Part shown: piece after piece, positions 3,601 through 47,822 of the stretch | Numbering within the stretch: position 1 is the first letter of the stretch | How the letters are laid out: each line of letters starts with the position of its first letter | Virus record (IMG/VR): IMGVR_UViG_3300045988_116318 | Coordinates: 84,184-148,183 of that record | Direction: 5' to 3' (one strand) | From: a virus | Length of the DNA: 64,000 bases | Notes under the pieces: model-generated | The model's database searches: none | Told to the model about the DNA's origin: nothing | The model's input: only the letters and a program-made list of their open reading frames with translations | Translations under genes and position numbers: made by a program

Positions 3601-6600
3601 ACTATATACAGGCAATGCTGATCTTCTTACTGCGAGAGAAAAAGATGTGTATGATAAATACAAACAAGATTTTGATGATTATGTATCATCTTTGGGTGAC
3701 AGTCCTGTTAATCTCATAAAATCATTATCTGAGAAGGCTGATAGGCTTACAAGTCCGAGATCTGTGTATGAGGATAATAAAGCTATTATTGATATGGCTA
3801 AATCCAATTTAGAACCAGATCAAAGGAAGGAACTTGATGATGCTATTTCTTCGTATGTTGATATAATGAACAGACGGGATAAAGGGGAGAAGGTTGACGA
3901 AGATAAGCTTGCCGATTCGGTATTTACCATAGAAGATCTTGGCCAGGTTGGAAACATCACAGATCTCCTTCCTTATGTTGAACAAAACAGGATTATTGAC
4001 AAAGGTCGTATCTCTGAATCTACGTTGAGTAATTTTGGGGAAGATGATGCTAATATAGATTCTCTTGTAAATGAGTTAGATGAATCCGATAATACGCCTG
4101 GAGCTAACATAGATAGCGCCCAGAATCCAGAGACGTTGATGGTTAGAAGAATATCCAACGATGGCAACGAAAGGTATGAAATTGCAGGTCTTAGAGCCGA
4201 TAAATTTATATCTTCTATAAAATCATTGGTTCCTATTCAAATAAGCTCTGAAACGAACGCTAATGGCACTAAAAGGTATTCTCTTAATATAGGTGGAGAA
4301 ACGGCTACTATAATTGAATTGCCTTATCATGCGAGATGGTCTATAGACAAAGAATCGGCTCGTGTTCTTAACCGTTACACAGACGTGTCTATTCAGGACG
4401 TGGGTAATTCCTATTCTTTGGTTTATAAGCGTCTTGATTCAGATGAATTGGTTCCGTACAGAACAGGTGTCGGATTCGGAGAGAATGAGGTAGATAAAAT
4501 AGATCAGGAAGCATTATCTTCTTTGAAAAAAGGAGATAAGGTTAATCTCGAAATAGATGTAAATGATACCTATAATCAGTCTCTTTTTGCCGAATACAAT
4601 GACGCTGTTCAGTCCGGCGATAAAAAAAGAATAGAATCTGCTGAGAATAAACTGGTATCCAATATGGTTATCAAGGTCATGAGTGGGAACAGATTCGTTT
4701 CTGTTGTAAAAGCTGATACAGGAGGCATAGATGGTATAAGTAAAATAAGAAGAACGGCTTTTAACAAGTGGAAGAAGGACGCCGGCCGGTCGGCTACCAT
4801 CGGCGTCGGCACGCATGTTGTTGCCCAGGCCCTTCCCGGAAGACCGGTGTTTAACATGAAGGTGAACGGTCAAGGATATGGCCAGGTAGAAAATCTCCCT
4901 ATTACCGAAAAAGGTGCTGAAAAAGTATCTGATGTGGGGTATGTATTAAATGGCAAAGTCGTGCTTAAGAACGGATCTAAATACACAGGATTCCCATTTG
5001 CTTATTCTATATTAAACGATAAGAAAAACAATTACAAAAATGTAAGAGTTCCGGTAGTCGTTATCAAGGGTAAGAATGGTCTTAATTATCTTTTCCCGGT
5101 TAGTCTACGTTCTGTGGAATCAGAGGAAGGAAAGAAATGGATTTCTTTTATAGATATGCTGCTTGAATCCGGTGACTCTGAATTGTTGCAGATGGGTCAA
5201 GATGACATACAAGATCTTAATGCGTATCTGACCAAGTTAGGTCTTGATCCAGCTTCGTATCAAGTATCGTATTTGAATCCTATTTCAGGTCTTAGAAAAG
5301 CTCGTGAGGCTATAGAAGAATTATCTACAGTTCCTGATGTTGTTAAGTGGGTAGAAGATGGAAGTAGGAGTGTGAAAGACATTGTGACGTCTGAAGTAGA
5401 ATCTGGAATAGATTTCGAAGGTGAGATGTTTGTTGCTCCTAAGATCAGGATTCAGTTTGGTAAATCATCTTCCAGACCTAAATCACTTATAGAAGATGAT
5501 CTCCCTTTCTCCGATGAGGGTAAGACCGTTACTTCCAAGGAAGATGTGGATATTTACGAAGAGGAAATGCCAGAGGAAGAGCCTGTCCAGGCGACTCAGC
5601 CGACGCCATCAACTCAGCCGGCTCCTGCGGCACAAGCTGCGCAGTCTTTACCTGGCAAGAAGCGTACCTCCAGGAAAAACTTCTCTCTTATGTTAAACGA
5701 AATAGAATCTCATATAGAAAAAGAAGGATTGCCGCCTTATGCTAATATTTTTGATTTTATAGCAAGGAAGATTGTAGGAGGCGATTTGAGGTTTCTTCGT
5801 GATAGAGGTAATCCTAAAAGCCTTAAGGAAGAAATGGGATTAGAACCTAAAGGAACAGTAGGTGATAAAATATCCACTCCTTCCAGTAAAGGTGGTAAGA
5901 CCTTAGAAGAATACGTTTCTTGGCTTCGTTCTCAAACAGATCAGGTGGTGGTTGATTATGTTGGGCCAAGATCTGACGAACAAATTATATCAGAGTTGAA
6001 AAACTTTTTGAAATATATTAATTTTGTTCCAAGCAAGGCTTTGAATTATTCTCTTAGAGTCAATGGCATGGATACCCTAAAAGAATATGGCACAAAAGAG
6101 GAAGTAGAAAAAATGGAATCTGATATCAATAGTTTGGTTTCTAAAGTTTTGCCTACGGTGGACAACCAAACTATAGAAGATGTTTCTACTGCAATAAAAT
6201 CAAACAACTTGCCTGCCATATGGGAGCCCGTGGAAAGCCTTGATATGACAAACGAGGAAAAAATAGAGTTTTTGAATAACGTAGCAGATTTCCTTAGCGG
6301 CATACCAGAGTATGATGCTGTCGTGGAGTCTATAGAGTCAGAATCAGATAATATTTTAAATGATGGAAAAGAAGGAAGTGCAGAAGGCGGTGCAGTACGC
6401 ACTGAGGAAGATGGCGATAAAAAGGGAGATGGAGAAGGCAAAGGACAATCCAGAACAAATGTCGAAGTTGAAGGAAATGTCGAATTACCTGGATCTACAA
6501 AAGGAGAAATAGGAAAAGACGAACCTCGTATATCCGAAGAACCGCTTACTTACATATCAAGGGTGACAACCCCTTATTTCCTGTACGGCGGTGATGAAGC

Positions 6601-29763: not shown

Positions 29764-30783
29764 TCATCGTTTTATCTTTTTAGACGGATCCCAATCCGAA
29801 GAGAAAGGGCATTCGTTTTTGTTATGTAATCCAAAGTCGCAATAATAACACAGTGCTGACGGGCAGGGTAGCTTGTTTTGCGAAACAGGCTGGCTTAGGG
29901 TGGCACGCCGCTTGCTATACCTGGCTCCTTCTGCTCCCTGGATGTACGCTTGAAATGATTTTACACTATTATCTTCAAAATCATACATTTTAGACAAAGT
30001 GTCATTTAGCATCTCTATAGATTTTGTTTTACGTTCCTCATCCACCTTAACCTTTTGGTACTGCCTGGTCCTGGTAAAGAAATAGATGTTCATATCTGGC
30101 AGAACTCCACCATATTTTCTATAGATGTAAAATGAATATATAGGATGCTGTAAATTTGTTTCCAACTTCTTAGAATCAAAAACCTTATTACCTGATTTCC
30201 AATCTATGACATAATGGTGAACTACGTTCTTGCTTTTTATAGCCAGATGAAGGTCTACCGATCCTACTATGTACACATGAGTATGAATTACTCCATTTAT
30301 GTTAACAGGCTTAGGAAGACGGTACGGTAGCACAAAATCCTCTTCGACTCCTATTATGGCACCGTGTCTGATGAGTTTCTCACAGGGATTAAGATCACTA
30401 TCAGCTATCATAAACCTATTCCCGTCTTTTTTAAATAGATCTACAATCCAAGCAAGAAGCTCTCCAGATTGCTTCATGGCTATCATCATATTTTCCGGTG
30501 ATTGCCAAGGTATGTCTTCCTGGTAAGCATAGTAACTTATTGCTTCTCCAAGGTCTTTACCAGAAGGCTGTCTTCCGTTCTTAAAAAAGTATTCCAGTGT
30601 CTTATGGATAACCGTACCATAAGACGTAGCTTCTTGTTTTTCCGTAGACCTTTTGCCCTCTACGTAAGTCTTATACCATTTCATTGGACAGGTAAGAAAC
30701 GTATCTATCTGGGAATAAGATATGGCAAGACGTTTTACACCATTAAACTCCTTATATAGCAAATGCGTTTCCGGGACCATCAT
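29764..30783 (-). CDS. Cas4/RecB-like PD-(D/E)XK exonuclease with predicted Fe-S cluster (339 aa)
   Basis: N-terminal SYSQIDTFLTCPMKWY. Motif VIDWKSGNK (DxK). C-terminal CPSALCYYCDFGLHNKNEC Cys cluster. Confidence 0.6.
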   Translation of the reverse strand: MMVPETHLLYKEFNGVKRLAISYSQIDTFLTCPMKWYKTYVEGKRSTEKQEATSYGTVIHKTLEYFFKNGRQPSGKDLGEAISYYAYQEDIPWQSPENMMIAMKQSGELLAWIVDLFKKDGNRFMIADSDLNPCEKLIRHGAIIGVEEDFVLPYRLPKPVNINGVIHTHVYIVGSVDLHLAIKSKNVVHHYVIDWKSGNKVFDSKKLETNLQHPIYSFYIYRKYGGVLPDMNIYFFTRTRQYQKVKVDEERKTKSIEMLNDTLSKMYDFEDNSVKSFQAYIQGAEGARYSKRRATLSQPVSQNKLPCPSALCYYCDFGLHNKNECPFSSDWDPSKKIKR

Positions 30784-31127
30784 AAGTCATTGTCTTTAAA
30801 TCCTTCCGGGTAATATACGACATACTTCTTACCGTCTTCTGGTGTCATGGCAAACTGCATGTAGTTATTACGATTACGATGCTTGCCATCTAATCCTCGC
30901 TTCCAATACAGAATCCCATCTATATCCACAGAAGACCGTCCGCGTTCGGCTCTAACTACGTCCGTGTGTAGCAGATACCCGTCGGAAGACACGATCCACA
31001 CTTTATCCCCTTTGTTTAAATAAGATATTCTTTTTCTTACAACAACCTTTTTCTTATTATCTAATGCAAATTCCTCATCGGTCATACTCTTCATCCTCCT
31101 CTTCTTCTGTTTCAAAATCAATTCCAT
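30780..31127 (-). CDS. hypothetical protein (115 aa)
   Basis: ORF. 4-nt overlap with upstream gene. Confidence 0.55.
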   Translation of the reverse strand: MELILKQKKRRMKSMTDEEFALDNKKKVVVRKRISYLNKGDKVWIVSSDGYLLHTDVVRAERGRSSVDIDGILYWKRGLDGKHRNRNNYMQFAMTPEDGKKYVVYYPEGFKDNDL

Positions 31128-31637
31128 ATCTCATATTCTATTAAATATATTTAAAGCTATTCATATGTTTTAATACATCCCCTCGGAGACCTTCCGGTCT
31201 CCTTGGTAGATGTAAATCCCGTTAGGGATAAGTCAGGATTTCTCCTGTAAGTACCCATCGCCAATGTTATAAGAGGTTTTATATAATGGCAACACTGTTT
31301 CGTCAAATACACTACTCCTGTTTAATCACCATCCTTAGAGCAAGAAACTTGGATAAACATTCCTTGGTAACTATTTATTCTCAAATAACGTAGCCTCTGT
31401 TTCAAGGCTTAGGCTAATAACCCGATCTCTGAAAGAGATGTATTAAACTTTTATAATAGAATTATATTGGGTTAATACTATTTGGGGTTATAACACCGAT
31501 CATAATGCTTGGTCAGTTCTTCTGGTTCTAAATCTTGTCCAAAATCCATGTTAAAAATATCGTAATTAGTAAAGCACTTAAAATCACTGTCCCTGCCGGC
31601 AGGAAATCTATGAATGCTGCTTTTGCTTCTTCAATTA

Positions 31638-31676
31638 GGCCCAAGTGTAACCTTGGGCCATTGTATTTATTTTTTG
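31638..31676 (+). terminator. GC hairpin (GGCCCAAG-loop-CTTGGGCC) followed by ATTGTATTTATTTTTTG; terminator-shaped in + orientation
   Basis: 8-bp stem and T-tract read on the + strand. Abuts the flotillin stop on the - strand, where no U-tract follows. Confidence 0.35.
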
Positions 31677-33367
31677 TCATCTCCTTTTAACTTCTTTAAA
31701 GTATCTGCAATCGGAAGCTGATCAATGACTCCCAATGCCGGAGCGACGGTCTTAACAACATTGTTAAGAAAATTACCGGTACTGTTCTGACCGCCGTCAA
31801 ATACCGTGATATTTCCGAGGTTAATGTGCTCAAATGCCTTAACCTGTTCTCCGGCAATTTCTTTCCACTGATTAACCATCTTGTACTGGATGGCGATCTG
31901 AGGATTGGATTCTGCTGCTTCCACCATAGCCTTAAATCCGTCGGCTTCTGCCATTAACGACTTTTTCTTACCTTCGGCTTCTGCCTCCAGTTTCATCTGA
32001 ATAGCCTTTGCCTCTGCCTCAGCTTTTGCCAAATGTGCTGCCGCCTCAGCCTCAGCCCGGCGTTTGATCTTCTCTGCCTCAGCATCAGCTTGTAATATAG
32101 CCTCTTCCTTCTGGGTTTCAGCCGGCACAATCTTTTCAGCCTTAAGCGCAGCCTGAACTTTCTTAGCCTTAGCTTCTTCCACTTCTTTGTCGGCAAGCTC
32201 TTTTGCTGTTTTTACAGCCGCTTCCGATTTAACTTTTTCTTCTCCGGCCTTCTTCTCTGATTGAGCTTTGATAATCTGTAGTTCTGATACTGACACAGCA
32301 ACCTCCTTCTGGGCATTGTTGTATCCTATAGACGCATTTTTCTCAGCCTCAGCCTTCTTAATCTGAGCTTCAGAGTCTTGTATTGCTATAGCTGCTTCCT
32401 TGTCAGCTTCAGCCTTATTCTTTCCGACTTCTTCCATCCTTTCAGCCTCGGCTTTATTTACTTCAAGTTCTGCCTTAGATCTTACAATCGCCGATTCCTT
32501 GTCGGTTAAAGTTTTTGCGATAACCGCAGCCCTGTCTCTATCTGCTTGAGCTACGCCGATCTGTTTCTCTTTATCGGTTAAAGCCAAGGCTATTTCTTTT
32601 TCTTTCTTCGTTTCAGCTACTATTGTTTCCTTTTCTTTTTCAGTACAAGCAATTTGAATCTCTTGTTCTTTTTTGGTATTAGCCACAGCCGTTTCTTTCT
32701 CCTTCTGCTGTACAGCAATCTTAATAGCACCCAGTTTCTCCTGTTCTTCGATATTAGCCTGTGCTTCGTTCAGAGCCCTACTTTCAGCCTCCTTACCAAG
32801 GTTCATAATATAACCGGCTTCGTCTCTGATGTCACTGATGTTGATGTTCAGGAGGTAAAGACCTAACTTGTTAAGCTCGTTATCAATGTTCTTTCTTGCC
32901 TTATCCAAAAACTCATCCCTGTCAGAATTAAGTTTTTCGATTGTCATTTCAGCAATAATCAAACGCATCTGACCGTAAACGATGTCCGTAATAAGATTTT
33001 CAGTAGATTCGGTATCCATTCCCAAAAGTCTTTCTGCCGCATTTTGCATGATCTCTGGATTTGTACTGATAGCTACTGTAATAGTCGTAGGAACATCTAC
33101 TCTAATATTCTGAGATGACAAAGCACCGGTAAGCTTGCAATCTATTTGCATAGGCTCCATTGACAAAACATCATAGCTTTGAATAATAGGCAAGACAAAT
33201 GCCGCTCCACCATGATATAATTTCGCCGATTTCTTTTCCCCACCTGTCTTACCATAAACGACCAAGACCTGATTAGGCTTACATCTACGATACCTTGATA
33301 AGACTCCGATGATTGTCAAAATAATCACTACAGCTAAGATAGCTGACACGTACATGATTGTTGTCAT
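31667..33367 (-). CDS. SPFH/band-7 flotillin-like membrane protein (566 aa)
   Basis: N-terminal TM helix, SPFH core, long Glu/Ala/Lys repeat coiled coil (AEAEAKAIQMKLEAEAEG etc) typical of bacterial flotillins (FloT/YqiK). Immediately downstream of an NfeD-like gene. Confidence 0.8.
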   Translation of the reverse strand: MTTIMYVSAILAVVIILTIIGVLSRYRRCKPNQVLVVYGKTGGEKKSAKLYHGGAAFVLPIIQSYDVLSMEPMQIDCKLTGALSSQNIRVDVPTTITVAISTNPEIMQNAAERLLGMDTESTENLITDIVYGQMRLIIAEMTIEKLNSDRDEFLDKARKNIDNELNKLGLYLLNINISDIRDEAGYIMNLGKEAESRALNEAQANIEEQEKLGAIKIAVQQKEKETAVANTKKEQEIQIACTEKEKETIVAETKKEKEIALALTDKEKQIGVAQADRDRAAVIAKTLTDKESAIVRSKAELEVNKAEAERMEEVGKNKAEADKEAAIAIQDSEAQIKKAEAEKNASIGYNNAQKEVAVSVSELQIIKAQSEKKAGEEKVKSEAAVKTAKELADKEVEEAKAKKVQAALKAEKIVPAETQKEEAILQADAEAEKIKRRAEAEAAAHLAKAEAEAKAIQMKLEAEAEGKKKSLMAEADGFKAMVEAAESNPQIAIQYKMVNQWKEIAGEQVKAFEHINLGNITVFDGGQNSTGNFLNNVVKTVAPALGVIDQLPIADTLKKLKGDDKK

Positions 33368-33399
33368 AACTTTTAAAATTTAATTGTTGATAAAAAAAA

Positions 33400-33894
33400 T
33401 TAGATACTTAATTCTCCTTCTTCGTATTTTATATTCACCTTGTCACCGTTTTTGTAATTTTTTCCAGACAAGCACCTCACTCTCATCTGTTCCTGTCTTC
33501 CATTTTTCGAAATATTTACCATATAATGATTCTTACCTGATCTAAATACTATCTCCGCCTCTCTGCCATTTAAATCTTCCGGACATTCGTACACCATTTC
33601 TTGTTTTAACTTAAGAAGTAACTTATATACGTAAAACAAAACGATAAAGAAAAATGACCCTATTACGATCCCTACTAAATGGGAACCCGAAAAGTACGTA
33701 GTCCAGCTATATCCAAGAATAAAATGTGTTATGCCTTTGAATGATATGATGTCCGACAAAGACATGCTTAAATCAGAAGCGTTATCAATGTCAATATCCG
33801 TATCCAGATCAGATCCTAATATCGACAATAAAAACTGTATAACAAAAGCAAATGACGCTATTAAAGCCATGCATAAAATTATATCATTTCCCAT
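33400..33894 (-). CDS. NfeD-like membrane protein (164 aa)
   Basis: Three TM helices then C-terminal soluble beta-rich domain (EAEIVFRSGKNHYMVNISKNGRQEQMRVRCLSGKNYKNGDKVNIKYEEGELSI). Canonical NfeD-upstream-of-SPFH gene order. Confidence 0.6.
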   Translation of the reverse strand: MGNDIILCMALIASFAFVIQFLLSILGSDLDTDIDIDNASDLSMSLSDIISFKGITHFILGYSWTTYFSGSHLVGIVIGSFFFIVLFYVYKLLLKLKQEMVYECPEDLNGREAEIVFRSGKNHYMVNISKNGRQEQMRVRCLSGKNYKNGDKVNIKYEEGELSI

Positions 33895-34135
33895 ATCCTT
33901 CTGTTATTATTTTGTAAACAAGATCAGTCATATCTTTGATGGATTCTGTATCATAATCAATAATAACGATATTGAATTTTTGTTCCACCATCACTTCCAG
34001 TTCAATTCGATCAATAGAGTCTAATCCAAGTTCTTTAAACGACACATCTTCTTCATGAACTATATCTATTTCTGAATTAAGAAACTGAGTAATAATTATA
34101 TCCTCTATTATCTTTCTGATTCTTACTTTTTCCAT
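33884..34135 (-). CDS. acpP: acyl carrier protein (83 aa)
   Basis: FKELGLDSIDRIELEVMVEQKFNIVIID matches the ACP phosphopantetheine-attachment signature (LGxDSL/I D..EL..). Size and acidity typical. Confidence 0.75.
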   Translation of the reverse strand: MEKVRIRKIIEDIIITQFLNSEIDIVHEEDVSFKELGLDSIDRIELEVMVEQKFNIVIIDYDTESIKDMTDLVYKIITEGYGK

Positions 34136-34836
34136 TGCTTTCTAATTTTGTTAAACAAATACGTTTTTATGTTTTTCAATCGCTCTTTGTCTGTTTCAGA
34201 ACTTCCGGTAAACAAATAATCCGGATTGCCTTTAGCCGGCGGCGTAGGCAATTTAGATACGGCAAACAACCAATCCATTTCCTTATTCTTCTTAGACTCC
34301 AAATAAGGCCCGGTAGCGATCTTAAATTTTTCAGCTATTAAGTCAAAGAGCTTTGAATTTTTAAGGTTCATATGGACTGAAAAAGCCTGAGAAGGCGGTT
34401 TCCATATGAAGTTACATAAGCTCATTGTATAATCTCCTGACTCTGCTATATAAGATTCCGTTACCTGAAGTATGACCTCTTTCTTGAATGAGGTGTTACC
34501 CATAAACCAACACAATCTGGATTCCGCTTCTTTTCTGCTGACACCTATGTCTTTTGAATACGATTCGTACATTCCTATCATAATCTTCAACGTTTCCAGA
34601 ACCTCGTCCGTCATTTCCGGTGTCTCTATATAATTCACAAAAGACGTTCCTTTGTTGGTTAATCTCATCACACCTGATTTTAATTTCTCAACCAGGCCAA
34701 GCTCTATATACCTCCCAGCATCTTTTTCCAGCATGGCTTCGATCATAACCGTATCCTTCTGTCTTATAGCAAGAAGATTAGCCAGATCATTAGGAGTCAT
34801 GTCTGATGCTGCAAGTTGTCTGAAATTGATGTACAT
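34123..34836 (-). CDS. hypothetical protein (237 aa)
   Basis: ORF overlapping the ACP start by 13 nt. Contains a weak SRKEAE segment. Confidence 0.6.
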   Translation of the reverse strand: MYINFRQLAASDMTPNDLANLLAIRQKDTVMIEAMLEKDAGRYIELGLVEKLKSGVMRLTNKGTSFVNYIETPEMTDEVLETLKIMIGMYESYSKDIGVSRKEAESRLCWFMGNTSFKKEVILQVTESYIAESGDYTMSLCNFIWKPPSQAFSVHMNLKNSKLFDLIAEKFKIATGPYLESKKNKEMDWLFAVSKLPTPPAKGNPDYLFTGSSETDKERLKNIKTYLFNKIRKQWKK

Positions 34837-34838
34837 GC

Positions 34839-35048
34839 CTAATCAGCTTTAATAAAAATAACATCCTTACCATCCTCCCTCTCTACGTGATTACACGGGC
34901 CTGCGACTACATCTACCGACCCGCATGTAATGTGGTCGTTAAATATACATCCTTCACATCCTAAGTCTGGCTCTGGAGCATCCACACATTTTAATCTCAC
35001 AAGTCCGGCATCAAACACTTCTCCTACTTTAAATTCCTTCTTTTCCAT
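34839..35048 (-). CDS. small Cys-rich protein (69 aa from ATG 35048 with AAGGAGG RBS; track ORF extends to 35132)
   Basis: 6 Cys (CVDAPEPDLGCEGC...CGS...CNH). Strong RBS favours the internal start and removes overlap with the upstream gene. Confidence 0.45.
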   Translation of the reverse strand: MEKKEFKVGEVFDAGLVRLKCVDAPEPDLGCEGCIFNDHITCGSVDVVAGPCNHVEREDGKDVIFIKAD

Positions 35049-35064
35049 ATTTCCTCCTTGTTTT

Positions 35065-35667
35065 TTAACTGTTGTACCCTTCTTTAATAATCGAATTTCT
35101 ACCGGTAGATACCGACTGTCGAAGATCGTCATGTACAGAATCTACCGTAGAATACTTGTTTCTGGTTGTAAAAATCACTTCCAGCATCTCCTTGTAATCA
35201 CCTAAAGCTACTTCGTATCTCGGATCTACTTTGGCTTTTCTTTCAGCCTCAGCATTACTTTTAGCCAGCTCCCGGTCGAGGAGGTCTTCTTTGATTCGGT
35301 CAGCAATCATATCAAGTTCTTTTTTAATAACTTCTCCTGCTGCCCGAAGTTGACCTTCTACGTCACCAAGCTGGTCTTGGACGGTTCCTATTTCTTTCTT
35401 TAGGCGATCGTATTCGTTAATCATACTCATATCACCTGCATAACCAGAAAAGTCTTTGATTATTCTGGTCCCTTCTTTAAGGAGCTCAATGACTCGTCTT
35501 TTGCGTTCTCTGCTTATTAAAGACGGAAGACGATAATTCATATCCGCCACCGCCTTGTCGTGTATGGAGTTGATTAAAAACATCTCTCTTTCATCCCCTG
35601 CAAATTCAGTAAGAACCAAAAGGAACTTACTTATCAGGTATTCGTTTTCTTCTACGGTAAGTCTCAT
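35065..35667 (-). CDS. hypothetical coiled-coil protein (200 aa)
   Basis: ORF directly downstream of DnaB-like gene. Confidence 0.6.
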   Translation of the reverse strand: MRLTVEENEYLISKFLLVLTEFAGDEREMFLINSIHDKAVADMNYRLPSLISRERKRRVIELLKEGTRIIKDFSGYAGDMSMINEYDRLKKEIGTVQDQLGDVEGQLRAAGEVIKKELDMIADRIKEDLLDRELAKSNAEAERKAKVDPRYEVALGDYKEMLEVIFTTRNKYSTVDSVHDDLRQSVSTGRNSIIKEGYNS

Positions 35668-35679
35668 ACGTTTCTTTTT

Positions 35680-36813
35680 TTAATATACTGACTGTTCTTC
35701 CTTTACCTCTTGTTCTTGATCTTGATTGTTCGTAACGTCTTCCACAGTATAGAGCTTAGGCGGCGTCGGCGGCTGGTTGGGGTTCACGAACTTCGTCCCG
35801 CCCTCTCCGTACATCCATCCATGCCCCGGCAGGATCTCTGGGTGGATTGTATTAGTAAGCTCTTCCATACTAACTTGCCTTACCTTCAGTATATGATGAA
35901 ACACCAGTCCGGCTGTCCTGAATGATGTTTTGTTTTCAGTTTTAAACCGGTCAAGAGTCTGATACCAGTCTTTCCCAAATATCATATACTTGTCCAGCCC
36001 GTATCTGCGAGGATTATGCAAACCTATCATTAACGTACATAGTTGCCCCAGCGTATCAGACTGATAAAAGTCAGAAAGACGGGGAGGCTGCTCTTGAGGG
36101 CTTTTTATCCTTCCTTCTATCTCTCTGTTGAATTGGGATATGATGAGGAAAAATATGTTTTTATATACTAATTTAGCCTCGTTCATAACCGCCACCAAAT
36201 CATCTATAGCCGACTTAGGATCCAATCCCATTCTTTTTATCAAAGCAATATGATCGACTTTAAATATTATAAGACGTTTGTCTTTATGCTTAGTAGCTAT
36301 ATGATATACAGCCGCCTCAAACTCTTTTACCGTACACGGAGCATCGATGTATATTATATTATTTCTAATTTCACCTTGAAGGATTTCAAACATCCTCATC
36401 TCTTCTACTGTATTAGAATCTTGCCTTCTTAATATTTCAGGAGCCCGTTTTTTCATATCCTGGCTCATTCTGCGAAGAAGAAGATCTTGAGGATTCATTT
36501 CGAACTCGCAATTGACAAGAAAATAATCTTCTGCTTGCGGGTTGATCATCGGATTCATCACATTTTCCAATATCTTTTGGGCCACATACGATTTACCCAC
36601 AGATGGCCGAGCTCCTATGGCAATAGCATGCTGAGGGAAAATACCTCCAAGCAAAGCCTCATCAATATAATCGTATCCGGTTTTAGCGGGGATAAGCTCT
36701 CCCCGCCTGTATTTCAAGATATTCTCATACGCCTCCTCCATAACCTGTTTAGAGGTCTTGAATATCCTTCTTATATCTATCTTATTTGCTATCTCCTCGT
36801 GCATTTTTGTCAC
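35680..36813 (-). CDS. dnaB: DnaB-family replicative helicase, C-terminal RecA-like domain only (377 aa)
   Basis: Walker A IGARPSVGKS, Walker B LIIFKVDHIALI, H3/H4 motif IISQFNREIEGR (lSQLnR..E.R). Confidence 0.8.
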   Translation of the reverse strand: MTKMHEEIANKIDIRRIFKTSKQVMEEAYENILKYRRGELIPAKTGYDYIDEALLGGIFPQHAIAIGARPSVGKSYVAQKILENVMNPMINPQAEDYFLVNCEFEMNPQDLLLRRMSQDMKKRAPEILRRQDSNTVEEMRMFEILQGEIRNNIIYIDAPCTVKEFEAAVYHIATKHKDKRLIIFKVDHIALIKRMGLDPKSAIDDLVAVMNEAKLVYKNIFFLIISQFNREIEGRIKSPQEQPPRLSDFYQSDTLGQLCTLMIGLHNPRRYGLDKYMIFGKDWYQTLDRFKTENKTSFRTAGLVFHHILKVRQVSMEELTNTIHPEILPGHGWMYGEGGTKFVNPNQPPTPPKLYTVEDVTNNQDQEQEVKEEQSVY

Positions 36814-37060
36814 CTTTTGTATCCGATTTGGATCCCCTATTGGCTTTTACTGATTTATACCTAAGACCGTTCTTGGTATGAGAACAATCCTTGCCTTTCC
36901 TCCAGCCCTTGCCCTTCTTCTTGTCCGTTTCGTAGTTTTTACGACCAAGCTCTCGGCGTTTGGCTTTCTGTTCCGGTCTGGCATTTATCTCCTTGTCCTT
37001 TTTAGCCTTTTTCTTCCTGGCTTCGGGATGAGTCCTGTAGTACTCTGTTGATCTGCCCAT
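36782..37060 (-). CDS. highly basic Lys/Arg-rich small protein (92 aa)
   Basis: KKKAKKDKEINARPEQKAKRRELGRKNYETDKKKGKGWRKGK. 32-nt overlap with dnaB start. Confidence 0.4.
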   Translation of the reverse strand: MGRSTEYYRTHPEARKKKAKKDKEINARPEQKAKRRELGRKNYETDKKKGKGWRKGKDCSHTKNGLRYKSVKANRGSKSDTKGDKNARGDSK

Positions 37061-39822: not shown

Positions 39823-41135
39823 ATTACGAATCTTTTAGACATTTCCTCTGCAATATCATATACAACCGTATGATCTTCTTCATTGTACGGCTTATTGATA
39901 TTCAACACTCCTTTTCTCACTTTGAACTTCTTATCTTTTCTAAGGTGATTCAACATACCTTGTTGGAACACACAGTCCGCCTTTTCAAGTGCCACACTGT
40001 CTTCTGTCCATTCTTTCAGCGTATATCCTTTACTGCTCGTGCTTTTTGGAGAAAAGTTCATAATACGTGCATCAATGCCATACCATGCTTTAACCATTCT
40101 TCTTTCAGCTTCCAATTGGAATGCATATGATTCCCATATTCCTCCCGATTTAAAGTCAAGAATGACCACTTCTTCTTTTTCCACTTCTCTTACTTCCTTC
40201 TTCGGATCACCTTTTTTGAACTGTCCGGTAGCCCTTTGATATACGGCTCCAAAATAACCTTCTTCTTTGTATTTGAATGTCATTTTAACCATCGCATCTA
40301 TCGGCGTAGCTACCAAATAATCTTCTAATGACAATATTCTTTCAATCATCATCGGCTTAACCTTATACTCCGAACAAAACTTAGCAAACTTCATAACTCT
40401 GACAATCATATCGTCAAGATCATCTATGCTACCAAAGAATTTGTCAAGATTCTTTTTCGATATCTTAAGCTTGCCTTCTTGCACCGTCTTAACTATAAAA
40501 CTTCGATTTAAGACCATATCTCTACCTGTCAAGTACAATCCATATAGGTAGTGCATGATCGTTCCTTTATCTGCATCATATTCTGATACTTCTTCCGGAT
40601 TGCGACCAATCATCCTCATCTCCTGTCTCCATTCTTGAAGAGCCGTCTTGTCATCTACGAATCCGTCTCTAATCATGGTTGTTACCGAGGCGTATATCTT
40701 GGCTGTCCCATCGTCCATCTTTCTTACATAAAAACGATTACCGTCTAATGTCAATCTTACGAATTTGGGAGTCTCGATCTTCTTCAATTCATCACAGATA
40801 TAAAATGGCTCTAACGTTTCCTGATTTTCTGTAAACGGATTCGAATCTTCTTCTCCAGGGTTAGGAGCGGCTTCCTCCGCCGGAGCTTCCGGTTCCTCCT
40901 TCTGGGCCTGCTCTGGCTCAGGCGCCGGCTCTTCAACTACTGGAACCTGTCCGCCTCTTTCTGCTATGTCTCTGTTCTTTATTAAAGACATAACCTCCTT
41001 CTTCAACTGCTCTGGTGTTTGGTTAGGATCTGACACCGACATCACAACATCGTTCATTCTAAACAACGTATTTCCTTCTCCTTCTACCATAGGCACAAAC
41101 CCTAAATCTGTCAATATTTTTATTTTCTCTTTCAT
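39819..41135 (-). CDS. PD-(D/E)XK-family nuclease (YqaJ/lambda-Exo-like) with acidic Pro/Glu linker (438 aa)
   Basis: VVILDFKSGGIWESYAFQLEAE core (D-x-K with downstream Glu). Pro/Glu/Ala-rich low-complexity linker near N-terminus. Confidence 0.5.
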   Translation of the reverse strand: MKEKIKILTDLGFVPMVEGEGNTLFRMNDVVMSVSDPNQTPEQLKKEVMSLIKNRDIAERGGQVPVVEEPAPEPEQAQKEEPEAPAEEAAPNPGEEDSNPFTENQETLEPFYICDELKKIETPKFVRLTLDGNRFYVRKMDDGTAKIYASVTTMIRDGFVDDKTALQEWRQEMRMIGRNPEEVSEYDADKGTIMHYLYGLYLTGRDMVLNRSFIVKTVQEGKLKISKKNLDKFFGSIDDLDDMIVRVMKFAKFCSEYKVKPMMIERILSLEDYLVATPIDAMVKMTFKYKEEGYFGAVYQRATGQFKKGDPKKEVREVEKEEVVILDFKSGGIWESYAFQLEAERRMVKAWYGIDARIMNFSPKSTSSKGYTLKEWTEDSVALEKADCVFQQGMLNHLRKDKKFKVRKGVLNINKPYNEEDHTVVYDIAEEMSKRFVI

Positions 41136-45572: not shown

Positions 45573-45824
45573 TCAATTTGAATAAATATAATGCATTCCT
45601 GCTTCATACACCTTATGTACATCAGGGTCATTCTTGTCTTCCGGTTCCAATTCGCTCTCTTCACGAGTATAATCCCATTCAGAGTTGTAGTACATATCCT
45701 CGTTTGTTTTTTCCAAGGAACAATCTTTCATTAGATTCATATTTTCTCCCCATACTGCAACTTCTTGTCGTTGCTCTTCTTCCGTCATAAGGGATATTTT
45801 GTCTTTCAATTCTTTCCAGGTCAT
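45573..45824 (-). CDS. hypothetical acidic protein (83 aa)
   Basis: ORF. Confidence 0.45.
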   Translation of the reverse strand: MTWKELKDKISLMTEEEQRQEVAVWGENMNLMKDCSLEKTNEDMYYNSEWDYTREESELEPEDKNDPDVHKVYEAGMHYIYSN

Positions 45825-45848
45825 GATTTTTAAAAGATGATTAATAGT

Positions 45849-46232
45849 TTATTCTACATCAAAAAGCTGATCTAACACCAACAATTCCGCATTCATATCT
45901 TCATCTTTCGGGAAACGAACTTTTATATTTCCAAACTTAGATGTCTTAAACAAGATGTAGGGGTTCATATCTTCGGCAGTCACCGGCTTATATTCCTTAA
46001 CTTCCGACATCTTGAGATACCAGTCACCTATTTTTACAAACCCAGAAAAGATAGAACACAGATGCGCTTTTACAGACTGTATCTCCTTTTCATCTTTGAA
46101 AGGTATAATTTCGTCCTTTCCCCTTATCCTGATTGACAAGAAAGGACGAATGTTATCTGTTTCATTTTGAAATTTGAAGCCTGTTATGGCTTGCTTGGGG
46201 ATTCTTCTTCCCATTAATATAAAATAGCTCAT
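45849..46232 (-). CDS. hypothetical protein (127 aa)
   Basis: ORF. Confidence 0.5.
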   Translation of the reverse strand: MSYFILMGRRIPKQAITGFKFQNETDNIRPFLSIRIRGKDEIIPFKDEKEIQSVKAHLCSIFSGFVKIGDWYLKMSEVKEYKPVTAEDMNPYILFKTSKFGNIKVRFPKDEDMNAELLVLDQLFDVE

Positions 46233-46543
46233 TGTGATAAGTGATTTTGTTTTATGTTAGGTAAGTAATTTGTAATAACATCAAGTGATATCCATAACTC
46301 TGGCTCTATGCTGTTTTTTATTCTATCACTGAAAAGAGAATTATCATCACAATCACAATGAGAGATTGTGATATAACAATCTTGATAATCCCACCAATGA
46401 GCCGATTTAAAATCGTCTCCTCCATTCCAAAACCCTATTCTTATACCTCTTGGGTTGAAATCTTCATCTATCCAACTTGGGTGATAAGCCAACACTTCTT
46501 CTCCCTCTGAAGGTTTTTCCTCTTTGAATTTCTTCCAGTTCAT
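46229..46543 (-). CDS. hypothetical protein (104 aa)
   Basis: ORF. Confidence 0.5.
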   Translation of the reverse strand: MNWKKFKEEKPSEGEEVLAYHPSWIDEDFNPRGIRIGFWNGGDDFKSAHWWDYQDCYITISHCDCDDNSLFSDRIKNSIEPELWISLDVITNYLPNIKQNHLSQ

Positions 46544-46643
46544 CTCACCTTTAATTAATTAGACACAAATATACAAGTTTTACTAAGATGCCCTTCTGTC
46601 ATCTCTTCGACATACTCCCACACCTAAAGTTCGCGGTAGTATG

Positions 46644-46997
46644 TCAATCTATTGATTTCTTCCCAATCTTTTTAATCTTTGTTGGTCTTGACAATCGATA
46701 ATCCTTTTCTATCGGCCTATCGAATACGTCATTCCTATATCCTTTATATCCTTTCTCGTAAATACTAACCCTTGCACAAAACTCAACCACATCGCCTGGT
46801 AATAAATCGGCGCTTTCGAATCCTTTTGTCAAATCAAACCACAAATGATCTGTTACTATTTTACCATCGAGTAACACGTCTTGTAAAAGTATTGTCTTTA
46901 CAGGTCCTTTATACCCATCCCTGAATCCAAAACGAATGAATGTCGCTGTAAATACGTGCCGATCTCTTGATCCTATTATTTTCAGTTCTTTTCTCAT
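46644..46997 (-). CDS. hypothetical protein (117 aa), third gene of ATPase cassette
   Basis: Start 7 nt after the ATPase stop. Confidence 0.55.
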   Translation of the reverse strand: MRKELKIIGSRDRHVFTATFIRFGFRDGYKGPVKTILLQDVLLDGKIVTDHLWFDLTKGFESADLLPGDVVEFCARVSIYEKGYKGYRNDVFDRPIEKDYRLSRPTKIKKIGKKSID

Positions 46998-47003
46998 CCT
47001 CTT

Positions 47004-47810
47004 TCATTTATTTGTTTCACTTATAAAATTGGTAATATCCTTTAGATACCCTTCTGTCATCTCTATGAAATTCACACAATCTAATTTACTTAATTTGTAA
47101 ATCAATACCGGATTGTGTACTATGGCTATAATTTGTGTTTGTGGTTTATGGAATGACAATACATTATAAATTTGCATTATGTTATCAATATCAAGATTCC
47201 TATCTGGCTCATCCATGAGAACCGTGTATTCAAAACTGCTTTCTGTTAATGTTATGCGGTTTCTTTCATAATACTTCAACAGGTTATCAATTCTTTTAAT
47301 CCAAAACGCATTTGATTTTTTCTTGTATTCTACAAGATCTTGTATTGGAAATACATAATCCTTTTGACCGAACATTAAATTGAAAAGTGATTCCAATGAT
47401 AACACCACTTTCTCTCCATAAGATCTTCGAATATTATTCACATACAAATCTAAGTTGCTGATGTTTTTCAATACGCTATCTCGATTCATCTCCGCCGATG
47501 GCAATAAACGGAATACTTTCCCTGCATAATCGGATGATATGTCAATCCCATCAAGAACCTTGTCATCATCATCAAATATGGGTGGAAAATCCAGTGCCTC
47601 GATCGGTATTTCAGAACACATGGATTTCTCACATAACGCATACATTGATATGATGTTAAGCAAGGTTGATTTTCCACTACCGTTTTTACCTATAATTACA
47701 TTCACTCCTGGCTTGAAAATAAATTCTCTGCCATTTTCAAATGCTTCTATATTAGAAACGTATTCAAATGGAGTTTTTGTATTGTCTTTTATTTTTACCG
47801 ATGTTATCAT
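47004..47810 (-). CDS. ABC/SMC-like (AAA_21-type) ATPase (268 aa)
   Basis: Walker A GKNGSGKST, signature-like RSYGEKVVLSL, Walker B/D-loop TVLMDEPDRNLD, H-loop AIVHNP. Confidence 0.7.
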   Translation of the reverse strand: MITSVKIKDNTKTPFEYVSNIEAFENGREFIFKPGVNVIIGKNGSGKSTLLNIISMYALCEKSMCSEIPIEALDFPPIFDDDDKVLDGIDISSDYAGKVFRLLPSAEMNRDSVLKNISNLDLYVNNIRRSYGEKVVLSLESLFNLMFGQKDYVFPIQDLVEYKKKSNAFWIKRIDNLLKYYERNRITLTESSFEYTVLMDEPDRNLDIDNIMQIYNVLSFHKPQTQIIAIVHNPVLIYKLSKLDCVNFIEMTEGYLKDITNFISETNK

Positions 47811-47822
47811 ATGTAATCCTTT

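Follow-up and report, generated by a model that had tools for sequence, protein, structure and literature searches.

To our knowledge, operons that pair a flotillin gene with an NfeD gene are nearly universal in bacteria, and their physiological role is still debated. In both Bacillus subtilis (YuaF-FloT, with FloT also called YuaG) and Staphylococcus aureus (FloA-NfeD), the flotillin gene comes second, behind the gene for a membrane-anchored partner with a cytoplasmic OB domain, and the flotillin itself joins a PHB/SPFH domain to a coiled coil. In the S. aureus system, where the NfeD gene likewise leads the operon, the cytoplasmic OB domain binds the coiled-coil "tentacles" of the flotillin, and together the two proteins stabilise unfolded membrane proteins, an activity that needs no ATP (PMC11222466). 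A further operon is found in Bacteroidales, including Bacteroides thetaiotaomicron, Bacteroides xylanisolvens XB1A, Parabacteroides, and Prevotella, where a protein of ~165 amino acids with transmembrane (TM) and OB parts precedes a flotillin of ~545 amino acids. Here we describe a viral counterpart of these operons, namely a short NfeD-like gene followed by a flotillin gene on the minus strand of a phage genome. The DNA analysed, hereafter called the window, is a stretch of 64,000 nt from IMG/VR record IMGVR_UViG_3300045988_116318 (positions 84,184-148,183), and coordinates below are window positions.

The phage pair consists of the same two genes as the Bacteroidales operon, in the same order, on the same strand, and with a short spacer. 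It differs from that operon by an extra TM open reading frame (ORF) of 50 amino acids that is coupled to the flotillin stop codon, and by an acyl carrier protein (ACP) gene upstream in place of the host neighbours. It resembles the S. aureus and B. subtilis operons in gene order and domain layout, but its partner protein falls below the Pfam NfeD model and its flotillin gains 144 of the 700 bits set for a FloT equivalog. Comparison of genes and gene order shows the pair to be a phage-borne, diverged copy of the Bacteroidales chromosomal operon. We put the probability at roughly one half that this captured host operon has been kept by the phage to supply an extra or replacement membrane scaffold.

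The window belongs to a common lineage of human gut phages with genomes of ~150 kb (csAssE-Sib type) and is not an assembly artefact, because related sequences recur in a complete GenBank genome, on at least 164 viral contigs, and among thousands of cluster members. Specifically, positions 31000-37000 are 95.9% identical, across 94% of their length, to OR575929.1, the complete 151-kb genome of phage csAssE-Sib from the human gut. A related flotillin occurs on at least 164 IMG/VR viral contigs, with the 80 examined all being at least 96% identical, and the protein clusters of the lineage hold thousands of metagenomic member sequences. Host contamination and chimeric assembly are both ruled out by the same flanks in the complete genome and on more than 160 viral contigs. 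A literature search turned up nothing published about csAssE-Sib, nor any paper that treats flotillin in connection with crAss-like phages or Crassvirales.

Few sequenced phages encode a flotillin homologue: of 50,697 records, 11 gave matches, and an annotated flotillin is present in just two of them, csAssE-Sib and Vibrio phage KIT04, which is T5-like. The KIT04 protein is 29% identical to the one studied here, and the ORF upstream of its gene encodes an 82-amino-acid TM protein that lacks an OB domain. Other lytic phages also encode SPFH proteins, including the T4-like phages 44RR, Aeh1, and RB43 and the N4-like phages, whose "lipoprotein" forms phrog_200. Such ORFs of T4-like phages were listed in 2006 (PMC1524935), and a 2026 paper called the reason for an SPFH gene in an N4-like phage "unclear" (PMC13239085). 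These genes, with that of KIT04, are unrelated acquisitions (29% identity or less). The phage of the window carries the complete host-type pair. A preliminary description of the region had considered the arrangement absent from described phage modules. That view cannot stand for single genes, given the annotation of flotillin in OR575929.1 and KIT04 and the SPFH phage genes known since 2006, but it holds for the complete pair, of which our literature search found no description. At the level of gene names, the system had already been annotated.

The flotillin and its NfeD-like partner

The 566-amino-acid protein is, by its domain matches, a member of the flotillin family and not an equivalog of B. 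subtilis FloT. Residues 30-211 match the Pfam Band_7/SPFH family (PF01145) with 91.7 bits (gathering threshold 23.6), and residues 450-559 match the Flot C-terminal domain (PF15975) with 38.0 bits (gathering threshold 27), which bears out the earlier naming of the protein as flotillin-like. The FloT equivalog model NF058507 of NCBIfam is matched with 144.5 bits against a cut-off of 700. The membrane helix and EA/KE-rich coiled coil of the preliminary description are also borne out: the hydropathy profile has a single hydrophobic segment at the N-terminus (residues 1-28), which serves as the membrane anchor, and 63% of residues 191-470, the coiled coil, are E, A, K, or Q.

The protein is also homologous to the eukaryotic flotillin-1/2 cage in its SPFH domain and the first stretch of its coiled coil, with E-values of 7e-23 and 5e-19 against human flotillin-2 and flotillin-1 (PDB 9bq2, 9l3g). 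From this homology, formation of a ring- or cage-like oligomer and the marking of membrane microdomains are candidate properties of the phage protein. Unlike the eukaryotic cage, it would be a prokaryotic homo-oligomer made from a single gene, equipped with a TM anchor and accompanied by an NfeD-like protein.

The 164-amino-acid partner had been named as NfeD, and this assignment holds only in part. Attempts to prove it by sequence profile failed. No Pfam family, including NfeD (PF01957), matches the protein at E ≤ 1. An exhaustive profile search gathers 243 relatives at E ≤ 0.001, mostly of ~160-180 amino acids, and just one of 64 full-length family members matches PF01957, at 6e-5. Searching PDB sequences with the family profile yields the C-terminal domain of YuaF (2k14) as a weak match (E 0.1). 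The family alignment also lacks any conserved stretch of 7-10 columns. The preliminary description had named a sub-threshold score against the NfeD model as a refutation, and on that rule the 164-amino-acid protein falls short.

The fold, architecture, and gene context of the protein point the other way. Its architecture comprises three TM helices, an acidic DxDxD loop, and a C-terminal OB-fold barrel (residues 112-163). The structure model places the helices at residues 2-26, 52-69, and 72-101 with low values of pLDDT (the model's per-residue confidence score), and hydropathy gives segments at 1-30 and 67-96. The modelled barrel is a five-stranded OB fold of the NfeD type, and the multi-pass N-terminal membrane anchor of short NfeD proteins is likewise present. 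The N-terminal serine protease domain of long-form NfeD proteins (STOPP/ClpP class) was found neither by Pfam nor in the structure model. A linking homologue is available in a viral protein of 175 amino acids in BFVD, which is 34% identical over the full length and is named "NfeD-like C-terminal domain-containing protein" in UniProt. Together, these observations support the designation NfeD-like for the modelled protein by fold, architecture, linking homologue, and gene context, though not by sequence profile. Judging from the profile searches, the flotillin partners of Bacteroidales are a family of ~165-amino-acid proteins that the Pfam NfeD model does not recognise, which constitutes an annotation gap.

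In three predicted proteins from Logan/ENA (P0020, P0028, and P0029), the N-terminal TM part of the NfeD-like partner is fused to the Flot domain from the C-terminus of the flotillin. They are either deletions spanning most of both genes or misassemblies.

The host operon and the phage copy

A scan of host genomes, with one genome per species, returned 80 chromosomal loci from Bacteroides, Phocaeicola, Parabacteroides, Prevotella, Leyella, and Xylanibacter, whose flotillins are 62-67% identical to that of the phage. A hidden Markov model of the 164-amino-acid family detects a member directly ahead of the flotillin gene, on the same strand, in 79 of them (E 1e-27 to 1e-63), and the lone exception begins at a contig end. 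Because of this near-constant association, the NfeD-like gene and the flotillin gene can be called a conserved Bacteroidales chromosomal operon on the strength of the genomes scanned. The claim that the phage has the canonical order, with the NfeD gene upstream of the SPFH gene, is thus upheld, since the order is the same in these 79 loci and in the related phage loci L085 and L090. Two metagenomic cellular contigs (L088 and L089) agree with it, having a gene for a 165-amino-acid protein directly upstream of the flotillin gene among housekeeping genes such as those for PGI, a tRNA synthetase, chorismate synthase, and pseudouridine synthase. In BLAST comparisons with the phage, their flotillins are 49-62% identical and their 165-amino-acid products 37-39% identical. 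In the flotillins of these two contigs (P0348 and P0358; 622-659 amino acids), part of the SPFH domain is duplicated internally together with the beginning of the coiled coil, a duplication that may be either real or an artefact of assembly.

In a neighbour-joining tree, the host flotillins are mutually 85-99% identical, save for a second Phocaeicola vulgatus paralogue at 74%. The flotillins of two phage species share a long branch of their own, and their identity to each of the host copies is 65-70%. These two phage species carry the pair in the same slot, which lies in the early/replication gene block, and their backbone proteins are 76-83% identical. Scanning IMG/VR with the B. thetaiotaomicron flotillin returned this phage lineage only, plus one host-like contig end, and recurrent capture by other phages was rejected on that result. 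The single long branch and the confinement of the scan to one lineage point to a single capture of the pair that was not recent. The NfeD-like protein evolves quickly among the hosts (41-81% identity between genera), and phage and host copies are 33-46% identical.

A further NfeD-like/flotillin pair, a divergent paralogue of the first, occurs in some Bacteroidaceae (L146-L151 and L161), and one metagenome-assembled genome has both copies. In P. vulgatus ATCC 8482, this second pair (L149 3430-5689; flotillin 74% identical to that of B. thetaiotaomicron) sits between ybeY and mnmG, a location that rules it out as a mobile source of the phage pair.

The ratio of nonsynonymous to synonymous substitution rates (dN/dS) for the flotillin gene is 0.041 between the window and the related species of L085, next to 0.070 for the neighbouring 237-amino-acid gene and 0.051 for DnaB, whose overall range is 0.01-0.07. 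Within the species, the flotillin values are 0.037-0.055. For the NfeD-like gene, two comparisons give 0.04-0.07, and a single pair of low divergence gives 0.25. These low ratios indicate that the pair is kept functional in the phage under purifying selection.

Variants of the flotillin nevertheless circulate. In-frame length variants of the coiled coil (window 32000-32750) range from ~467 to 595 amino acids (P0337, P0312-P0316, P0342), with P0337 having 481 amino acids, or ~85 fewer; DNA tandem repeats were considered as their cause, and none of note was found. A sublineage on at least 14 contigs, including some genomes of ~124 kb, has a broken flotillin gene (positions 4276-4340 of loci L174-L176; window ~32050-32090). 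Codon 426 is changed from CAA to TAA, and a 1-nt deletion follows 40 nt further on, which leaves an SPFH/coiled-coil ORF of 425 amino acids and a separate Flot-domain ORF of 109-121 amino acids.

The long phage branch might also signify a hijacking or poison subunit, a reading that we regard as rather unlikely. The phage pair would then co-assemble with or displace the host flotillin complex and so rewire or disable host microdomains, perhaps blunting membrane-linked stress or abortive responses or retargeting host proteases and transporters. Mixed oligomers are plausible because the domains relevant to assembly remain conserved relative to B. thetaiotaomicron, at 80% identity for the SPFH domain and 76% for the Flot C-terminal domain, next to 59% for both the coiled coil and the TM segment. 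The separation from the hosts, the length variants, and the addition of a phage-specific 50-amino-acid TM protein to the operon would also suit such an activity. However, strong purifying selection over the whole protein fits a conserved function equally well, no PADLOC model matches the cassette, and no flotillin-dependent defence is known in Bacteroidales.

The variable slot and its surroundings

The preliminary description listed seven minus-strand genes, from a DnaB-like helicase to the flotillin, with gaps of 32 nt or less, and all of these ORFs were confirmed, as were the DnaB-like and ACP identities (Table 1). The tight string is longer than this, however. It continues upstream of the DnaB-like gene to at least position 41135, with gaps never above ~52 nt, and runs downstream into the 50-amino-acid ORF, after which comes a non-coding gap of 400 nt (31128-31527).

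Table 1. Genes and elements at and around the phage flotillin locus
Feature	Window position	Strand	Remarks
DnaB-like replicative helicase, C-terminal ATPase domain only	35680-36813	-	DnaB_C 61.7 bits (cut-off 27); phrog_37407, 2.6e-40
200-aa backbone protein	35065-35667	-	12-nt gap to DnaB-like gene; weak sub-threshold matches at residues ~80-150 only
Cys-rich protein, 69 aa counted from internal ATG	34839-35048	-	16-nt gap; weak phrog_33085 match
237-aa backbone protein, N-terminal MarR-like winged helix	34123-34836	-	2-nt gap; upstream edge of slot
ACP, 83 aa	33884-34135	-	13-nt overlap with 237-aa gene; serine motif LGLDSID
Short NfeD-like partner, 164 aa	33400-33894	-	11-nt overlap with ACP gene
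Flotillin, 566 aa	31667-33367	-	32-nt gap to NfeD-like gene
Tail-anchored TM protein, 50 aa	31528-31680	-	14-nt overlap with flotillin stop codon
Orphan HEARO element (IscB omega-RNA type)	31247-31491	-	Rfam RF02033
115-aa backbone protein	30780-31127	-	Downstream edge of slot; homologues in L083, L084, L085, L090
PD-(D/E)XK exonuclease, backbone	29764-30783	-	PF12705 on homologues; exodeoxyribonuclease in OR575929.1

Related loci were compared through the conserved 237-amino-acid protein, whose homologues range from 36 to 98% identity. They share a backbone in the order DnaB, 200-amino-acid protein, small ORF, 237-amino-acid protein, slot, 115-amino-acid protein, PD-(D/E)XK nuclease, and ResIII helicase. 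The 200-amino-acid protein adjoins DnaB in all relatives examined, and the small Cys-rich protein has 65-69 amino acids across most related loci. What fills the slot varies. In the window and in L090, which is from the same species, it holds the ACP, NfeD-like, and flotillin genes and the 50-amino-acid ORF, and L085 (76% identity in the 237-amino-acid protein) has the same content with a 52-amino-acid ORF at the end. In L083 and L084 (60%), an ACP gene and a DNA methylase gene are present, joined in L083 by two radical-SAM genes. The slot is empty in L087 (52%) and holds neither ACP nor flotillin in L082 (36%).

Because the conserved backbone persists in relatives that lack the pair, the synteny identifies the flotillin pair as accessory cargo of a variable hotspot, outside the replication module. 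The functional tie between the pair and the replicative helicase that the preliminary description had drawn is accordingly not sustained. By the same comparison, the cassette is accessory and not essential to the phage, because the slot is empty or otherwise filled in relatives and because the sublineage with a broken flotillin gene exists.

A similar verdict applies to the ACP gene, which had also been tied to the pair. Its product matches PP-binding (PF00550) with 27.1 bits (gathering threshold 20.8) and phrog_5934, "acyl carrier protein," at 4e-8, and misses all ACP equivalog cut-offs of NCBIfam (~30 bits against 70). The serine motif reads LELDSLD in L085, and DS(I/L/V)D persists among homologues. 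The gene occurs without flotillin in L083 and L084, in copies that BLAST does not detect. No ACP gene was called near the flotillin gene in L088 or L089, and tblastn gave no match in 82 host loci. Between the window and L085, the ACP is 36% identical, compared with 83% for the flotillin and 64-83% for neighbours; its dN/dS is 0.12-0.48, and about 8 of 80 close relatives have a truncated copy. Its occurrence without flotillin in relatives, its absence from host loci, and its faster evolution identify the ACP gene as a separable accessory gene that is a positional neighbour of the pair only.

These results bear on one of the roles envisaged in the preliminary description, a replication or assembly platform. 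On this reading, a flotillin microdomain would anchor the DnaB replisome or virion assembly at the membrane, and the ACP would supply or modify lipid. The tight single-strand packing with DnaB and ACP genes and the joint presence of ACP, NfeD-like, and flotillin genes in two phage species would suit such a platform. The idea has nonetheless become highly improbable. It is weakened by the synteny, since the whole replication backbone is kept in relatives without the pair. The ACP gene diverges independently and occurs without flotillin, and the sublineage with a broken flotillin persists. No cognate phosphopantetheinyl transferase or acyl-handling enzyme is found among the ACP neighbours, which are the winged-helix and NfeD-like proteins. 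The 237-amino-acid protein was considered as a phosphopantetheinyl transferase or acyltransferase for the ACP and ruled out, given its MarR-like winged helix and its conservation in relatives without ACP. Likewise, no lipid-metabolism, phosphopantetheinyl transferase, or acyl-handling enzyme is annotated in stretches 1-50,000 and 107,843-137,465 of OR575929.1.

In OR575929.1, the region is annotated with a "flotillin family protein," a "transmembrane protein," an "acyl carrier protein," and a "DnaB-like replicative helicase." The 50-amino-acid protein has a hydrophobic C-terminus (residues 21-50) and homologues in L090 (98% identity) and L085 (41%). No counterpart was found in 82 host loci; judged from these searches, it seems to have been added to the cassette in the phage.

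With regard to transcription, no terminator-like hairpin was found on the minus strand from ~37100 to 31605. Sigma-70 promoter-like sites and the Bacteroides -33/-7 pattern both occur at chance level and are no guide to promoters in this phage, whose own type may differ; the Bacteroides pattern has no minus-strand match in 27084-63852. From the coupled, overlapping stop and start codons, we infer that the pair is probably co-expressed with the upstream genes.

The HEARO element matches RF02033 at full length with 95.2 bits (gathering threshold 83; E 3.4e-18) and lies outside the flotillin module. It is a ~360-nt insertion relative to csAssE-Sib and is polymorphic, being present in 16 of ~90 related loci searched; the gap from flotillin to nuclease is ~846-884 nt with it and ~510-520 nt without it. 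No ORF of IscB size stands beside the element in the window or in any of the 16 carrying loci. Other insertions are seen in relatives. In L083, an IS605 OrfB/TnpB gene and the two radical-SAM genes follow the ACP and methylase genes (L083 3592-4812, 10217-11946), and in L084 an intein lies within the DNA methylase (L084 8941-10521). The ResIII helicase has a LAGLIDADG/Hint insertion and a Gad2-domain protein is also encoded, with the first genes of both loci among the positions concerned. Elsewhere, the annotation of OR575929.1 lists a diversity-generating retroelement (45751-47816, which is outside or at the edge of the region homologous to the window) with VR/TR/IMH, a reverse transcriptase, and a putative tail-fibre gene as its target, as well as four tRNAs and GH5 glycosyl hydrolases.

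Cargo in such a hotspot could serve superinfection exclusion or another conflict between phages, with a membrane assembly blocking DNA entry or adsorption by competitors. We consider this quite unlikely for the flotillin cassette. The slot does hold DNA methylases, radical-SAM genes, and mobile elements in relatives, the cassette is dispensable in nature, and the polymorphic HEARO next door marks a hotspot. However, what the pair copies, much as an orthologue would, is a housekeeping operon of the host and not a known exclusion protein. PADLOC models gave no match for the flotillin, NfeD-like, ACP, or 50-amino-acid proteins (the 237-amino-acid protein has a weak LmuC-like match, E 0.002), and no papers on SPFH proteins in anti-phage defence were found in the literature searched. 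On these two results, the cassette was rejected as a candidate defence system.

A proposed membrane scaffold during infection

We return to the reading of the pair as a captured host operon that furnishes a membrane scaffold. In this scenario, the pair and the coupled 50-amino-acid TM protein would be read through together with the surrounding minus-strand genes. The flotillin would use its N-terminal helix to enter the inner membrane of the host, and its coiled coil and Flot C-terminal domain to oligomerise into an SPFH assembly. The cytoplasmic OB domain of the NfeD-like protein might then bind the flotillin, in an arrangement like that of S. aureus FloA-NfeD. Perhaps the resulting scaffold tops up or replaces that of the host, so that the membrane and its protein complexes are kept working until lysis while the phage takes over host expression. 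The cassette would thereby follow the logic of an auxiliary host-like gene, which is beneficial but not essential. Taking the analysis as a whole, support of the host membrane during infection is probably the function of the cassette.

Several observations weigh against this reading. The divergence between phage and host flotillins (65-70% identity) is far above that among hosts (85-99%) and fits a changed function equally well. The partner protein fails the Pfam NfeD model, and gene spacing is the sole ground for co-transcription. Finally, as the phage survives loss of the cassette, the genes might just as well act as a conditional weapon, whether for anti-defence or for exclusion.

A more far-reaching outcome, which we view as doubtful, is that the pair has been neofunctionalised. 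By co-assembling with or replacing the host cage, it would create a membrane compartment under phage control, with the 50-amino-acid protein as a phage-specific adaptor. Such a compartment would serve either to disarm host responses linked to the membrane or to organise processes of the phage. If true, viruses would thereby gain their first SPFH/NfeD system whose role in infection is defined, and it would reside in one of the more prevalent lineages of human gut phages.

A diverged copy of the scaffold that is kept by a phage amounts to a natural experiment on the benefit that the scaffold may bring during membrane and proteome stress. Because intact, length-variant, and broken flotillin alleles coexist in this common lineage, metagenomic time series could reveal their effect on fitness without waiting for a cultured host.

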